Shown here: piece after piece, positions 51,844-61,759 of the stretch
Layout: every line of letters starts with the position of its first letter
Position numbering within the stretch: the first letter of the stretch is position 1
DNA from: Podospora anserina
Taxonomy: Eukaryota
Reading direction: 5' to 3'
Length of the DNA: 64,000 nt
Assembly (NCBI GenBank): GCA_017654855.1
Contig: CM030333.1
Span: 2,542,001 to 2,606,000 of the forward strand
Position numbers and translations under genes: made by a program
The notes under the pieces: generated by a model
What the model saw: only the letters and a program-made list of their open reading frames with translations
What the model was told of the DNA's origin: nothing
The model's database searches: none

Positions 51844-52842
51844 CTATGCCTCCTCCAAGCCACCCTTCTTCAACCCTCCACCCCCATTCGCAATGAGGTC
51901 CAGGAAGCCTTTCCTGCTCATCTCGGTAATCTTCTCCTCCTTCCTCTTAACACCCACCATACCCTCCTTTCTGACCACCCTTTCCGCCTCCGAAGCCTTG
52001 ACCTGAGCTGCGCGCACGGCATTGAAAAGTTTGACCACACCACGTTGCGCAACCTTTCTCAACCTCCTCTCCGTCGCCAAAAGCTGGCCAGTTGTCTCAG
52101 CACCATCCTCAAGTTCCTCCTCAATCTCGCCCGTCTGCAGGTTCAGTGTGCGCTTGGTGCTAGGTACCAACACATCTCTCACGCGGCCCTTCTCCATCGC
52201 CAACCGCTTCTGCTCGCGCAATCTCTTGCGTGCCTTGGCCTCGAGCGCAGTATCCACCAGCTGCTTCGCATTCTCCGCCGCTACCGCGCTGCGCGCTACA
52301 ATTGGATCGGCGCGCTTGGAGGTAGGGAGTTTACTGGAAAGCATCTTGGAGATGGACGTCGCGAAGGCTTCTGGGTCGTTGCGCTTCGACTTCATGCGGT
52401 TCGCGCCTGTGCCAAGCCCATCGTCACTGCCGCTGTGGGCGTCGTCGTCCTCGTCTGAAGATCCGTCATCGCCATCGCCATCCTCGTCGCCGGAGGAGTT
52501 ATCTGAAGCTGGCGCATCTTTGGCGACAAATTTCTTCTGTTTTGTCTCTGATTTTGGTTGTTGGGATTTGGACTTGGGATTTGGCGCCGAATCGCTGTCG
52601 GACTGGGAATCTGAGTCTTCGGCTTCGGTGGAGGCGCCGTCGTCGGCCTCGAGGTTGTCTAGATCCTCTTCGTCCGAATCGAGCAGGTTGGAGGGAATGG
52701 CACCGCCTTCGTCATTCTCGGAGTCTTCTTCCTCGGAGCTGCTGTGGTATGCGGCGACTTGTCTCTGCTTCTTGGTTGGTCTTTGTGCCTTGCCCTTGGG
52801 GCCGTCGCTGAAGGAGCGCTTCTTTAATGATGATCCTGCCAT
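51844..52842 (-). CDS. RRP15: rRNA-processing protein Rrp15
   Basis: Acidic N-terminal region; FATSISKML, ERRLRKVAQRGVVKLFNAVRAAQ, SRKGFLDLI. Confidence 0.9.
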   Translation of the reverse strand: MAGSSLKKRSFSDGPKGKAQRPTKKQRQVAAYHSSSEEEDSENDEGGAIPSNLLDSDEEDLDNLEADDGASTEAEDSDSQSDSDSAPNPKSKSQQPKSETKQKKFVAKDAPASDNSSGDEDGDGDDGSSDEDDDAHSGSDDGLGTGANRMKSKRNDPEAFATSISKMLSSKLPTSKRADPIVARSAVAAENAKQLVDTALEAKARKRLREQKRLAMEKGRVRDVLVPSTKRTLNLQTGEIEEELEDGAETTGQLLATERRLRKVAQRGVVKLFNAVRAAQVKASEAERVVRKEGMVGVKRKEEKITEMSRKGFLDLIANGGGGLKKGGLEEA

Positions 52843-53582
52843 GGTGTGGGGTGCTGTTGCAAGTCAATTGCTGCAAAGACTTGTGATGGGTCTGGAGTTG
52901 ATGCGGATGATTGTCCAGCGCACTCGTTGTTCGAGCGAGTTCCCCAGAAATTTTTGGCGGTGAATAGCGGCAGGAATGTGCCCCGCTGGTGAAGAGTGGA
53001 GCCGATGCCCCAAGCTTCTTGCTCCACTCGAGCTTTCAAGCTTCATTTTGTGGTGCTCAAGGTGGGCATGTGAAGCTTCGTCTGGCATCTAGGAAAACTC
53101 AATCTACATGACTACCAACTGTATAAATGTTTATTTTAGATCTTCTCACCTCTTCTAGTTGGAGCAATATTATTATCTCAGGAATTGCCAGTTTCTTCCA
53201 TTGTACACTGGTCTCACAACATGGCATTCACCTTGGCCAAGTAGATGACTTCTCACGCAACAACAGGCCCACCCAAATGCCATTGTGTTTGTCGTAACCC
53301 GCGGCCCGGTCGCCGGTATCTCAACTAGGTTTCTGATCCTTCCTGGAGGTGATGTTTCGCCGTACTAACCGGTTGCCTTCTAGATATGGGTTCACCAAGA
53401 CCAAAACAACCCTGCGCCAAGGTGGTAAGCCTGACTCTTTGAGGAACTATTGGCTTAGTTTACGCAGACATCCAGACAAGCGCGTTTACAATGGCAGTTC
53501 AAATACTCCTCCACATCCCGTGTCTCATCACAACAGCCTTATGCTCAATCTATGAGCGCGCAATCTTCTGATACCAGTCAGA

Positions 53583-55259: not shown

Positions 55260-55660
55260 AGATGTGTGTATGGGAGTGTGATATGGGAAATGATGATACC
55301 CAGTGTGTATATGATGGATGATGTAATTACGATGGAGGTTATGTTGATGTGCGCTTATTTTGAGCCTTTACAGTTCCAAGAAACACCTTGTACGGCAACA
55401 GTGGGCATCGAAAAGAATTCAGTCCCGTTCTTCACAATTCATGATTTAATGTGTTAATATCACAGCAAGGGCATTGCCCAATCATGTCATGGCTACAGCA
55501 TTACACACACGTCATGGACAGGCAGAAAAAGTAGCTATCCCAACTGATATTCATTAACTCCTGCTCCCTCAAACCCTGCTCTACAGCGCATTACCAATTA
55601 CCTAGGAAAGAATCGCCCATGCCCAACACTCGACAGTCATTTCCTACCTCGACCTCGCCA

Positions 55661-56627
55661 TCACCCACAACAAACAGTCACATCCTCCAACTCGCCACAC
55701 CGCTTACTGTCATGTCTGTCTCGTCAACACACACGTCAGCTTCATCTTTCTTCCCTTCTTTTTCCAGAAACACTTACTTCCCCACCCTCGTCCAGTGAAA
55801 CAACAAATACCCCAAAAACACCCCAAAGAAAATCGAGAACAGCACAAACCCATTATAGTACATCCCCATCCTATAATCTCGTCAGCATATCCCTTCAACC
55901 CCCTCCCCACCCTGAAAAGTACTCACAGCATCAACAAATAAGCCACCACAAAATTAACCAAATGCAACAACGCCCTCAAAAACTGCTCACAAAACCCCGG
56001 CCTATAACACTCGCACCCTTCCTTTCTCTCGTGTTCACCCCCAGTATGATGACTCTCCTCCTTCTGCCGCCGCGGCCTGCTCGCACACTGCCCGTCCACT
56101 TGTCCTATCCCCTCCCCATGTGCCGCATTCAGATTAACCGCACTTGCCACCCTCGACTGCTCCGCCGTCAGAGGCCTCAGAGACGACGAGGGCGTCATCC
56201 TCCTTCCTACAGGATGGGGAGGGACAGGTTCCGTATCTATCAAGATTATCTCACCGGGATGGCCGTGATGTTGGTGATGGGGGCATTTGTGGGCGTGGTG
56301 ACGGAGGAGGTGGCGGTCGTATTCCCGAGTCAGGCGCCGGAGACCTTCTAGCAAAAGGGCGAGGAGGAGGACGGCGATGCAGGCTGCTGCCATATGGCCG
56401 TCGCTTCTGACTTGCTACGTCTCTGAGAGGAAGCAGGAGTCTATGGTGTTCCAGTTCCAGGTCATCTATTGCATAGGGGGTTAGCAAAGGGGAGGGAAAT
56501 GGGAAGGGGAAGGGGAAGGGAAAGGGGAGGGAAATACTTTGATGAGACATGCTGGCTTTGTGACGGCGTCTTCGACGATGATGATGTCGATGGGGATGGG
56601 GACTGTGGTGGGGGCGGGGTTAGACAT
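55661..56627 (-). CDS. Ctr-family copper transporter, 4 exons, with in-frame TAG at 56415-56417
   Basis: Exons 56627-56538, 56465-55927, 55870-55778, 55715-55661; CLIK-MTWNWNTIDSCFLSET*QVRS, TM1, YLLMLMGMYYNG (MxxxM), GVFLG, C-terminal VTVCCG*. Confidence 0.88.
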
Positions 56628-57119
56628 GCTGGGCTGTGGATGGGGTTTGGTTGGCGGTTGAGGCTGGGTGGGCGGTGGTGTGATGCTGGGCGTGAGGTTG
56701 TTGTGTTGACGGGAGTAAGTGCTTGTCGGAAGCAGATAGACGATGATTTTGGTGTCCTGGAGGTGGTTGGGCGGGGGTATACTGATGCTGGATGGTGATA
56801 ATGGAAGACACGGGTTGTGAGGTAAACTTCTCATTAAATCTTGGACAATGGGAGCAATGCGTCCGCAGTCAAGGCAATTCTTACCCTGAATCAATTCGTT
56901 TCAAGAGTGCCTTCCTGCCCGGATTGATGGAAGGACCACCAACCTGCCTGGTCCGGTTCGCCGGACACAAGCCTCCGAGAAATGATGAAAAGGGCAGGCA
57001 CGATGCAGAGAAGATGTAATGGATGGGGCATCACTGGTCAACCTCCTCTATCAAGGCCAAAAACACAAAGAGAGTATTACGCATAAATGGTATCACAATA
57101 TCCAAACCCCACCTCCCAC

Positions 57120-59076
57120 TCACTGATTCCCAACCACATACCTCGCCGTAGCAATCCTCATCCTCTTCCCCGCCCACAATATCGGCACAATCAACAACGA
57201 AAATACCCCCATAATCACCGTAAAACCTCCAAACGGAACCAAATACCCGTCCCTCTCAATCCACTGAATGACAAACAGCAACCAAATGAATGGCACCATT
57301 CCTCTCAAGATACAGATCATGGCAAAGCAGTCACTGGCGAGCTGGTTGTACGCGTCAATGAGCTGGAAAATGACCAGTTAGCTTCAATCTCATTGATATC
57401 ATGGAAGGTGTGTGGGGTCACTCACATAACTGAACCACAAACTCGGCACCTGCGTCAACGCAAAAGCCACCATCCCGTACGCCACCTGAAGCCCAATCCA
57501 CTGGTACTCCCCCGGATACTGCGCACAGAACCCAAACACCAACAGCCCACCCGTCCCCAACGCCAGAGCAGGCAACATAATCGGCAGTCTCGTCTCCGGC
57601 TCGGCATAACCGTGGTCTTGCTTCTTCGCAAAAGCCTTCAACCGGCGGTCTGCTAGGAGGGCAGTGGTGATAGCGCCAAAGACTATACCAATCAACGCGC
57701 CTATGAACAAAAGCCCCGTGTCCGCGCCCCAGTCATACGGCGGAAGAATGAGCAGCTGAGGTCCGATGGTGGAGATGACGGCCACAGCACCGACCAAGCC
57801 ACCATACTGCAGCATGGCAATCCACGTGGCTGGCAGCCGGAGGGTATACCACGGCTTCATAAACTGGTACTTGATTCTACCTCTGTACATCCCAAACTTG
57901 AGCGAATCAGAAAAGGTATAAGGGTGGTAGGAGAAGTTCCCCGGGCCCGTTGCTCTCGACGACCTGACCTGCTTTGACAATCTAGTGGGTGTCATGGCAG
58001 TGGAGCTGCTGAGGTCCCCAGAAGATGACGGCTGATACCATGTATACGTCGGGTCCAACTCCCCGGTATACCGAAACCTCGACGGCAGCGTCATCCTCAT
58101 CGATGGCAAAGTAACCAGACTGAGGTACGGCGCAGGTGTCCGGGGCCAGTACCTCGATGGTCGGGGAAGATTCCTCTGGATTGGCAAGCAGTGGGCTCCA
58201 CGTTCGTAGATCGTTTCCGGGACGAATAAGACCGAACACAAGAATGTGATGCCCGCCAGAACAGCGCTGACCCAAAAGACTTGGAACCAACCCAGCCTGA
58301 CAGCGATGTAGCCGCCTGATATACCGCCCACGACGGAGCCGCTTGCTAGGGCTGCTGTGTAGAACGCCTGAGCAGCCGCGTCAGCGAGAGTTCGATGTTG
58401 GAGAAGAACGAGAGAAACATACCATCCACCTCCCCCTCTCATGCACAAAATACATCTCCCCCACCACCGCCGGCACCACCGTCTCGGACGCACTACTCCC
58501 AAACCCCTGAAAGCATCTCACAACCAAGATGCCAACAAAGTTGGAGGTTGTCGCCCCGACAGCCGTGGAGATGAACAGAATGAGCGCCGAAATAAGGACA
58601 ATGGCCCTCCTCCCAAAGATATTCGCCACCGGCACGAGAAATACATTTCCAAACCCCAACAGGAGAATATTGTACTATCTTTTCTGTCAGCTCGATCATT
58701 ACCCTTCACCCTTTTTATGAGGGAAAGAGCTTACCGCAACAAACTGCATCAACTCCTCAATCTTCCTCTGATCCTCGGGAAACTCCAGATTCCACACCGG
58801 CAACGCAGGCGCGATGCAAGCCGAGATGAAATTGCTCACAAAGGCGTACAGCGAGACGGTGCTGATGCACGCCAGCTTCCTCCACGGGGCCCAGTTCAGG
58901 GGGTCTGCCGGGTCTGGGGTTGGGAGGGGGTACTTTGAGAACCGATCCGTTGTTGTCACGCCTCCCTCTGGGATGACGACCGTGGTCGTGGGCTCGATCA
59001 GCCGGACCGTTCCCGGGGGTGTGGCGGCCTTGACGGCTTCTCTGCTGAGGGAGAAGGCATATTTCCAGCCGGGCAT
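57120..59076 (-). CDS. Major facilitator superfamily transporter (DHA1/HOL1-like), 4 exons
   Basis: PTPDPADPLNWAPWRK, ANIFGRR, GEMYFVHERG, FVPETIYER, EPETRLP; multiple hydrophobic segments. Confidence 0.88.
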
Positions 59077-59653: not shown

Positions 59654-61051
59654 TCACAACCTACAATCTTCCGTCGAGTGACCGTAGTCATTGCACGAAA
59701 GACACCACGTCTCCTCCGTCGAGTGAGCAAATGCACAGCGTTCGCCCCTGCGACACCCAACAGCCGTGCATCTCTTTGTTTTCCACAACCTAAAGTCCTT
59801 GGTCGGATTATCCCGAAAGCGAGCCATTTCCTTGCTTGTATGCTTATAACCACATTCACCCCTATCTCCGCAATGCTGGCCTTTGGGACACCCTTGAGTC
59901 CCGCGCTGAGCACGTCCGTGAGCTCTCCCTGGCCGAGATCGAGACTTCACCTGCTCCCAGCCCTCCTCATCATCGGGATCTCCGCCCCCCTCAGCCTCGG
60001 CCTCGTGGACTTCTGCTTTTTCGTCTCCGGCTTCGGGTGGGCCACTTCCAAGATCAACACTGTTTTCCAGGGAGCTTTGCGCGTCGTGTTTCGTACTGAG
60101 AGGGGAGCTGGAGGCTCGGTTGTCATTTTCCAGCGGTAAAAACATGTTGCTCGTCTCGACAATCTCCGACACATCCTTGTTGAACCTACTGGCATAGACG
60201 GGCCATGACATGATGGTGGTCTTCTCGCCAAACAGTTCCCGTGCTTTTACGATGATGGCCTCGATGTTCTTCACCGTGGGGAACTCGACGAATATTTCTG
60301 ATCCATTCTTTGAACGCGTGGTGTAGAACAAACGTCCCAACTCGAGGAGGACCTTCGCCACGTAAGAGTCGTTCCATGTTTCCTCAGCGAGATCCTCTGG
60401 CTCCAAAATCACAATCGTGTAGGCGGGAACGACCCTGGTGTTTCGGGTGGAGCGGAAGTTGGTGAACGACACTTGGTTGAATATGTTGTCCAAGAACTTG
60501 ACCGATAGTCGGCCATTGGTATTTCTTTCCCTCAAGTATTCCCTGGCCATCCCGGAGTTCCACCCCCAGAGTTCCACTCGGATGCCACATCCCAACACCT
60601 TTCTGATCGCGGGGAGCATATCGCGATCTCCCGTGATAACGATAAAGACTGTTCTTTTTCTGCGCTCTTCGACGGCTTGATCAAATTTCGCCACGGCCCT
60701 AAGATCAACAGCCTCCTCGGTCATATCTGCCGACATGGAGTTGTCCACCTCCTTCTCCCTCCCATTGGCGCCGCGATCGTATATCTTGGTTTTGAAGCTG
60801 CACTTCTTGTATTGGTCCCATACCAAATCATTAGGCGGTGGCCGAGAGCCGTAGATGTAAGATTGGCGCTGAATTCGGCCATCGCAGAGTGTGTTGACTA
60901 ACCTTCCTATATTAATCCGGAGACGTGGGTCCTGATCACCGTCTGTGAGCTTGGGCATATGTGAATTGCCCGAGGCGGCGAACTTCTGAGCCTCGATCCA
61001 CACGTTGGAATCGTCCACAAATAGCAAACATTCGTCATTATCGGCATCCAT
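59654..61051 (-). CDS. NYN/LabA-DUF88 (PIN-fold) nuclease with two CCCH fingers and a CCHC knuckle; intronless
   Basis: FVDDSN, YIYGSRPP, EKEVD, ITGDRDMLPAI, VELWGW; CPKGQHCGDRGECGYKH, CTAVGCRRGERCAFAH, CLSCNDYGHSTEDC. Confidence 0.85.
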   Translation of the reverse strand: MDADNDECLLFVDDSNVWIEAQKFAASGNSHMPKLTDGDQDPRLRINIGRLVNTLCDGRIQRQSYIYGSRPPPNDLVWDQYKKCSFKTKIYDRGANGREKEVDNSMSADMTEEAVDLRAVAKFDQAVEERRKRTVFIVITGDRDMLPAIRKVLGCGIRVELWGWNSGMAREYLRERNTNGRLSVKFLDNIFNQVSFTNFRSTRNTRVVPAYTIVILEPEDLAEETWNDSYVAKVLLELGRLFYTTRSKNGSEIFVEFPTVKNIEAIIVKARELFGEKTTIMSWPVYASRFNKDVSEIVETSNMFLPLENDNRASSSPLSTKHDAQSSLENSVDLGSGPPEAGDEKAEVHEAEAEGGGDPDDEEGWEQVKSRSRPGRAHGRAQRGTQGCPKGQHCGDRGECGYKHTSKEMARFRDNPTKDFRLWKTKRCTAVGCRRGERCAFAHSTEETWCLSCNDYGHSTEDCRL

Positions 61052-61759
61052 TGTCGCCGGTGGTGTGATTCACGCAGATTAAGGGTAAGGCAGAGCGTAA
61101 CGAACAACCTGTTGCGAGAGTATGGCGAGGTGAGTTCAGATATATATATATACCAGCGACAAAATCTGGGCTTTTCCTACTGTTGTGCACTGTCCTTTGC
61201 TGTTGTGTGTGCCTATCCTTTAAATCCCATCAACCCGGTGAAAAATGCAGGTTGCTTGATAATATTTCTAGGCCAGCCGATTGAGCCAATATTTCAAGGA
61301 TCGAAACGTTTGCAACCGCTGTGGCAACAGTTCCCCGCCATCCATAGCCTATCATCGCCAATCTGCCTCGCCATTTTTGGTGACCTGCAGGCCTGTTTGT
61401 GTTGACCTACCTGATATGCGCTGCGACGTGGACCAGTGACACTATGGTGGCCTAGAAGACAGCAGCTGCAACAGAGTGCGTATTCGCACTGGATTGTCGC
61501 CTGTTGATCACCCCGTCATCCCCGGCTTGTACGTATAGCTTCTTGATTTCGTTCTTGTCGGCCTTCCGAGGGTCCCAGGTTTCTTGCAAGAAGCCCACAT
61601 CCTTTCCTCGCTCGAGCTGCTTGGCTTCTCGATCAATACGCCCGAAGGTTGCTCAGTTTCCTCTGACCTTTCAGCGATCACGAGCCCTCGCCGGTGAGGA
61701 AGTGTTGCATTTTTCCTTGGACTTCGGCGCAGCTGCAATGAGAGTTCCCAATGATATCC

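Follow-up and report, generated by a model that had tools for sequence, protein, structure and literature searches.

The stretch of DNA considered here, referred to below as the window, comprises 64,000 nucleotides of Podospora anserina (assembly GCA_017654855.1, contig CM030333.1, positions 2,542,001 to 2,606,000) and carries on its minus strand the gene PODANS_2_6330 of P. anserina S mat+. The public 204-amino-acid protein of this gene (P0003) is 100% identical to the translation of the window. P. anserina belongs to the class Sordariomycetes, order Sordariales, family Podosporaceae. The gene encodes a protein of the Ctr family of copper transporters, and its reading frame contains a single in-frame TAG, and a spliced RNA contig has G in place of its middle A. 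Adenosine-to-inosine (A-to-I) editing of the PODANS_2_6330 mRNA, correcting the premature stop, is the explanation that we hold with good confidence; it is a known kind of editing, here in a species and a gene family without earlier description.

Gene structure

The coding part of exon 1 (56627-56538; all features of the gene are on the minus strand and are numbered by their position in the window) encodes MSNPAPTTVPIPIDIIIVEDAVTKPACLIK, 30 amino acids that start at the first AUG of the transcript assembled from sequencing run X2 and end in ...ACLIK; this transcript contains no AUG upstream of 56627. Intron 1 (56537-56466), 72 nt long with GT..AG borders, is absent from single contigs of runs X1 and X2. 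Between 56487 and 56535 it contains a short pyrimidine repeat of the CCCTTC/CCCTTT type, which was skipped as a repeat in the mapping of the read contigs. Exon 2 (56465-55927) opens with MTWNWNTIDSCFLSET, continues with the TAG (56417-56415, with the A at 56416) and then with QVRSDGHMAAAC. Its content is, in order, the MTWNWNTIDSCF motif, the TAG, the first transmembrane segment (TM1), a long loop rich in His and Cys, and TM2 as far as the first Met of the MxxxM motif. The start of the public 204-amino-acid model is an ATG located downstream of the TAG, at 56393-56391.

Intron 2 (55926-55871) has 56 nt, and its joint is present in contigs of X1, X2 and X10. The MxxxM motif (MLMGM, 55931-55861) spans this intron and is completed by exon 3 (55870-55778), which also carries TM3 with the GxxxG motif (GVFLG, 55824-55810). 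Intron 3 (55777-55716) has 62 nt, and its joint was found in a minor X1 contig. The coding part of exon 4 (55715-55661), HDSKRCGELEDVTVCCG, ends in ...EDVTVCCG followed by a TGA stop, and a tail of the form ...EDVT.CCG is common to the orthologues. In run X2 the mRNA extends over 55534-56815 and is represented by a contig of 1154 nt without introns 1 and 2 and with intron 3, the length of which equals the sum of its three pieces. An earlier note, made from the letters of the DNA, had described three intact introns, the MxxxM and GxxxG motifs, the terminal CCG and the in-frame TAG, and all of these were recovered at the positions given above. The TAG is the only defect of the gene.

Assignment to the Ctr family

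Exon 2 alone, with the TAG read as W, matches the Pfam family PF04145 (Ctr) with an E-value of 6.1e-24 and 85.7 bits, the cut-off being 25.3. A profile made of the protein and 38 homologues matches the structure of salmon CTR1 (6m97) with an E-value of 5.4e-15, the alignment beginning just after the Trp column, and a single-sequence search of the PDB gave 0 matches at E <= 0.01. The family is defined by MxxxM in TM2 and GxxxG in TM3. PODANS_2_6330 shares with the other Ctr/SLC31 proteins (PaCTR1-3, yeast Ctr1, Ctr2 and Ctr3, vertebrate CTR1 in 6m97 and 6m98) the PF04145 domain, both of these motifs and a Cys-containing C-terminal tail. It differs from them in its short N-terminal ectodomain, the 30 amino acids from exon 1, which is devoid of Met- or His-rich copper-binding clusters, in the cytosolic TM1-TM2 loop, which is unusually long, rich in His and Cys and conserved within the Podosporaceae only, and in a gene that is closed by a stop codon.

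The Ctr genes of P. anserina discussed in the available passages of PMC3495915 are PaCtr1 (Pa_1_16400), PaCtr2 (Pa_4_4770), PaCtr3 (Pa_3_10440) and the ScCtr2-like gene Pa_1_4220; PODANS_2_6330 is not among these four, and its name in the form Pa_2_6330 was not met in the main texts of the literature searched. Judged by its sequence, the gene adds a fifth, so far unstudied, member to the Ctr copper transporters of this fungus. The copper depletion of the grisea mutant is described as leading to pale mycelium and ascospores and to impaired fertility (PMC3495915). The protein would import copper, and may do so for the sexual stage or for the supply of pigment synthesis or laccase.

The stop codon at the conserved tryptophan

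Searching 1.84 billion representative proteins with HMMER gave 491 relatives at E <= 0.001. The best 150 of these 491 and 13 other proteins of at least 60 amino acids were aligned with MAFFT, giving 163 rows. The column of the TAG is occupied by W in 147, by F in 2 and by R in 1 of the 150 rows that have a residue there, which bears out the expectation of the earlier note that fungal Ctr proteins have Trp at this position. The remaining 13 of the 163 rows, gapped at this column, are N-terminally truncated models and open reading frame (ORF) pieces of the clade to which PODANS_2_6330 itself belongs.

Fungal Ctr proteins contain, just before TM1, the motif M-x-W-N-W-x-T-x-D-x-C-F-x(4)-W, and all of its positions are present in PODANS_2_6330 except the last W, which corresponds to the TAG. 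The conservation of the motif per 150 rows is M 146, W 136, N 147, W 140, T 140, C 150, F 145 and W 147. Upstream of the stop the residues M1, W3, N4, W5, T7, C11 and F12 are preserved, together with a Cys at -4; the end of exon 1 has, before MxWNW, this Cys of the family (66 of 91 homologues) and an Ile at -2 (50 of 92). The upstream coding part is near-identical to the full-length protein of Podospora australis (CLIKMTWNW.T.D.CFL.E.WQVRS.GHMA). The segment cut off by the stop still looks coding, because the family-conserved residues upstream of the TAG have all been kept.

RNA evidence at position 56416

Among 24 public sequencing runs listed, 20 contain the stretch, and four of these, from four studies, were mapped (X1, X2, X3 and X10). 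Runs X15-X20 are genome-sized, with 1.00 of the sampled words present; X1-X14, with 0.23-0.81, were guessed to be RNA, and X1, X2 and X10 were taken as RNA because their contigs lack introns. The X2 contig (record 11, 1154 nt, word depth 391.9), from which introns 1 and 2 have been removed, has one single difference from the window, T>C at 56416 of the plus strand, corresponding to A>G in the message and to UAG>UGG. This is the change that the earlier note had predicted for the RNA. By our own arithmetic, the position lies about 328 nt inside the contig and 50 nt from the joint of exons 1 and 2. The X1 contig (record 4, 1111 nt, depth 17.5), with introns 1 and 2 also spliced out, has the genomic T at 56416. 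The depth of the alternative base is 391.9/391.9 in X2 and 0/17.5 in X1. Run X3 has T at 56416, but its pieces are unspliced over introns 2 and 3, may come from DNA or pre-mRNA and say nothing on editing, and 56416 lies outside the coverage of X10.

A contig of another locus, which matches 56425-56460 (36 bases, 3 mismatches), was present in all four runs, with depths of 1246, 406, 69 and 3620; by its sequence it probably represents the MxWNWxT..CF region of a paralogous Ctr mRNA. The ratio of the depth of the gene to that of this contig (405.6 in X2) was about 0.97 in X2 and about 0.014, 0.06 and 0.001 in X1, X3 and X10, contig depth being a rough measure. The edited form was found in the run with the highest contig depth of the gene (X2) and the unedited form in a run of low depth (X1). 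These depths hint that, in the condition sampled by X2, expression of the gene is strong and most of its message is edited. A chimeric assembly with the paralogue was considered and rejected, since the other contig has 3 mismatches in 36 nt and shares no long words, and the X2 contig has one difference only.

Intron 3 is poorly spliced: the main X2 contig still contains it, and X1 yielded one piece with it (depth 7.1) and one from which it has been removed (depth 4.3). The 5' ends of the transcripts also differ. The unedited X1 contig extends at least 116 nt beyond 56900 and the edited X2 contig ends at 56815 (region 56816-57016). The longer X1 end includes an in-frame ATG at 56834, in a weak context with T at -3, which would add 69 amino acids. 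Alternative transcription starts, or an overlap with the transcript of a neighbour, may account for this longer end. The gene located directly upstream, on the same strand (57399-58517, minus), matches the Major Facilitator Superfamily (PF07690, E 1.2e-10), and ORFs for an NYN-domain protein (59654-61069) and for Rrp15p (51844-52863), both on the minus strand, were found farther out.

Translation from the first AUG gives 46 amino acids for the unedited mRNA, the peptide that the earlier note had derived. The edited mRNA gives 258 amino acids when fully spliced and 241 when intron 3 is present, the shorter product ending in ...HWTRVGK, followed by TAA, with loss of the Cys-containing tail ...EDVTVCCG. 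A stop codon has probably led to artificially shortened N-termini in the public models, both those of 204 amino acids in the Podospora complex and those of four other Podosporaceae species. Protein searches with residues 1-60 gave 0 shorter matches and 5 near ones, all of them known, and the edited-Trp form of the gene was absent from the collection searched.

Relatives and age of the stop

In the Podospora complex, every named model listed has 204 amino acids. The genomic ORFs P0015 and P0016 (156 amino acids), which come from assemblies resembling P. comata, begin at MAAAC, and therefore a stop precedes this point there too. In Triangularia verruculosa, T. setosa, Cercophora samala and Apiosordaria backusii, every model has the homologous Met as its start. 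The orthologues of these four species are 52-63% identical to the query over the 87% of it that is covered, loop included, and they retain open frames, the transmembrane segments, the loop motifs EPVPPPPVGRR and EGIGQVDGQ and the tail ...EDVT.CCG.

The N-terminally complete relatives P0019, P0020 and P0022 come from Podospora australis, which has Trp in the TAG column (...CFLAERWQVRSAGHM...), and from two Cladorrhinum species, which have Phe; an upstream N-terminal exon is present in 2 of the 3. The position appears from the alignment to tolerate another aromatic residue, because Cladorrhinum carries Phe there. A quick maximum-likelihood tree was calculated with 58 rows, namely those of at least 140 amino acids among P0003-P0008, P0011, P0168 and P0018-P0069, shorter rows and lower-ranked matches being left out. 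In this tree the N-terminally truncated models form one subclade (Shimodaira-Hasegawa-like approximate likelihood ratio test, SH-aLRT, 97) within a clade of Podosporaceae only (SH-aLRT 100), the remaining members of which are full-length proteins carrying W or F at the site. Outside the Podosporaceae, neither the best 150 of the 491 relatives nor the quick tree contained a close orthologue of this Ctr lineage, and a metagenome scan with the alignment gave 3 loci, all of them distant Ctr genes with the Trp intact, and no orthologue. The distribution suggests that the stop is old and has been retained, and a single origin from TGG followed by retention would be the simplest reading.

An origin of the TAG by repeat-induced point mutation (RIP) was also considered but finds no support in the dinucleotide indices: the gene has a composite RIP index of -0.63, and none of 126 windows of 1 kb is above 0.

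Comparison with known fungal A-to-I editing

The context of the site is G-A-C-G-U-[A]-G-C-A, with U at -1, G at +1 and A at +3. Fungal A-to-I editing is reported to prefer hairpin loops and either A or G at +1 and +3, and more than 70% of its sites to have U at -1 (PMC11156358). The site, U[A]GCA, fits the sequence part of this preference. The correction of premature stops by UAG>UGG is stated to be needed for some 71 genes of Fusarium graminearum (PMC11156358). Neurospora crassa and Sordaria macrospora are among the species with reported editing, which has been called a common feature of Sordariomycetes (PMC11156358, PMC10776026). The earlier note had pointed to the sexual-stage editing of Fusarium, Neurospora and Sordaria, which prefers U at -1 and restores premature UAG to UGG; P. 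anserina belongs to the Sordariomycetes, the class for which PMC11156358 reports sexual-stage editing of this type. Correctable premature stops are described as having arisen within the Sordariomycetes, often from TGG, and as having then been retained (PMC10776026).

The closest known counterpart is the premature-stop-correcting (PSC), or restorative, editing of F. graminearum (PUK1, AMD1, FgRID, FgAMA1 and 71 PSC 'pseudogenes'). A genomic in-frame UAG, an otherwise intact ORF and UGG in the RNA are common to both cases, and so are U at -1, purines at +1 and +3, an ancestral residue that is often Trp and a stop retained in related species, which here is judged from the gene models (PMC11156358, PMC10776026). 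The present case differs in the organism, Podospora anserina of the Sordariales, and in the gene, a Ctr copper transporter, and the dependence on stage and on Tad2/Tad3 may or may not apply here. N. crassa and Sordaria macrospora belong to the same order as P. anserina, and in them editing takes place in developing fruiting bodies, changes of stop codons included (PMC5381528, PMC11156358). Individual editing sites are reported to be rarely conserved between species in the comparison of Sordaria and Pyronema (Teichert et al., PMC5381528).

No published report of editing sites in Podospora was found, judged from listings and abstracts. The accessible part of a 2025 preprint on the sexual transcriptome of P. 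anserina only lists ADAT genes as differentially expressed, and the expression tables of a sexual time course of this species (bioRxiv 10.1101/2024.12.09.627484) may bear on stage specificity. One supplementary file of PMC10776026 does not contain 'copper', 'Ctr' or 'PF04145'.

Proposed mechanism and alternative explanations

In the proposed mechanism, the genomic frame is closed by a UAG at the nearly invariant Trp just before TM1, and in at least one condition the mRNA is abundant and has its UAG read with G as the middle base. The chemistry is most likely an A-to-I deamination such as that ascribed to Tad2/Tad3 in F. graminearum, with inosine as the presumed product and an enzyme of this kind as the presumed agent. 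The codon would become UGG (Trp), and the first AUG would then open the full-length ORF. The unedited spliced mRNA, which is present in another run, would give from its first AUG only the peptide of 46 amino acids; the transporter would therefore be gated after transcription. The editing may be restricted to the sexual stage and to fruiting bodies.

Several observations weigh against this interpretation. G at 56416 occurs in just one (X2) of the three runs that cover the position, X3 being unspliced, and the contigs give the majority path only and not the level of editing. The RNA of X2 was compared with the genome of the reference strain, so that a TGG allele in the strain of X2 is a formal, though unlikely, possibility. 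The main X2 contig, with intron 3, would give a product without the conserved C-terminal tail. The local folding of the RNA is unremarkable (z +0.3 to +1.25 against shuffles), and in the centroid folds the edited A is at the closing pair of a 15-nt loop, at the loop/stem junction, and not clearly within a hairpin loop. The presence of the TAG in the DNA of the genera of the four other species is deduced from truncated gene models.

The polymorphism just mentioned would imply that the reference carries a nonsense allele (a private mutation, a change of RIP type, CpA>TpA, or a sequencing error), that X2 comes from a strain with an intact TGG and that no editing takes place. Alleles mimic editing where DNA of the same strain is absent, and TGG>TAG is a G>A transition that lies in a CpA context on the other strand, which is the type of change made by RIP. 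However, apart from this one base the 1154 nt of the X2 contig, untranslated regions and retained intron 3 included, agree fully with the window, which is of strain S, and the spliced RNA of X1 has TAG. The six DNA-like runs, from two studies, contain 1.00 of the sampled words, although the sampled words may not cover 56416. The P. comata-like genomic ORFs begin only past the stop, the listed models of the species complex are uniform in length, models of four other species of the family are truncated at the same Met, and the RIP indices reported above give no signature. The otherwise perfect identity of the contig and the stop in the sister species argue for the same genotype in the X2 strain. 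The recent nonsense or RIP-type mutation that the earlier note had offered as its alternative is disfavoured by the same P. comata-like ORFs, truncated models and lack of a RIP signature, and a strain polymorphism is regarded as highly improbable. Similarly little weight is given to a programmed translational readthrough of the UAG which, alone or together with editing, would allow unedited mRNA to give the full-length protein. The six nucleotides after the stop, CAA GUC, agree in 5 of 6 positions with the readthrough-promoting context CA(A/G)N(U/C/G)A known from work on yeast, but the last position of that context is not matched, and the change in the RNA alone explains the opening of the frame.

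The annotated protein of 204 amino acids could itself be the real product, made from the AUG at 56393, in which case exon 1 and MTWNW would be a 5' leader or an upstream ORF and the editing incidental. The start is the one used by the public models in the listed records of the Podospora complex and in the four other Podosporaceae species, and the Met at this column is older than the stop, since it also occurs in P. australis and Cladorrhinum. This AUG is, on the other hand, the fourth in the transcripts and has C at -3, behind three AUGs which each have A at -3. The resulting protein would begin at the start of TM1, without the near-invariant M-x-W-N-W...C-F...W motif, and the upstream sequence keeps all the residues of this motif, which would not be expected of a non-coding leader. 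Moreover, where the stop is absent, in P. australis and Cladorrhinum, the same annotation effort gave full-length models. An unedited product of this kind is considered unlikely, and still less is to be said for a decaying pseudogene, that is, a redundant Ctr paralogue which has been inactivated and in which A>G is a functionless by-product of promiscuous UAG editing. For the latter explanation, which is judged very unlikely, speak the presence of at least four other Ctr genes in P. anserina, as discussed in PMC3495915, and the debate on the adaptiveness of fungal editing, which the accessible parts of PMC13431901 and PMC13684035 describe as still continuing. Against it, the defect is single in the whole gene, with introns, motifs and tail intact, the orthologues of the four Podosporaceae species keep their frames, transmembrane segments, loop motifs and tail at the level of identity given above, and the mRNA is very abundant in X2.

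Significance

Editing that corrects the premature stop of PODANS_2_6330 would provide a concrete and checkable A-to-I recoding site in P. anserina, a long-standing genetic model, and would add a metal transporter to the genes that are opened by stop-correcting editing. Should the DNA of the other genera prove to carry the stop, the gene could become a clean case for the debate on adaptive restorative editing, with a single apparent origin, full-length sister lineages that have Trp or Phe, and a function that can be assayed by copper uptake and ascospore pigmentation.

More tentatively, the UAG might be a selected switch rather than a defect that is merely tolerated, a possibility that we put forward with some doubt. 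The stop would have arisen once in a subclade of the Podosporaceae and been kept in several genera, so that a copper importer that could do harm elsewhere would be confined to sexual tissues or ascospores, which are competent for editing and need copper, and the inefficient splicing of intron 3, with its variant lacking the Cys tail, would form a second layer of control. If this were true, a conflict between growth and reproduction would be resolved here at the level of metal homeostasis.

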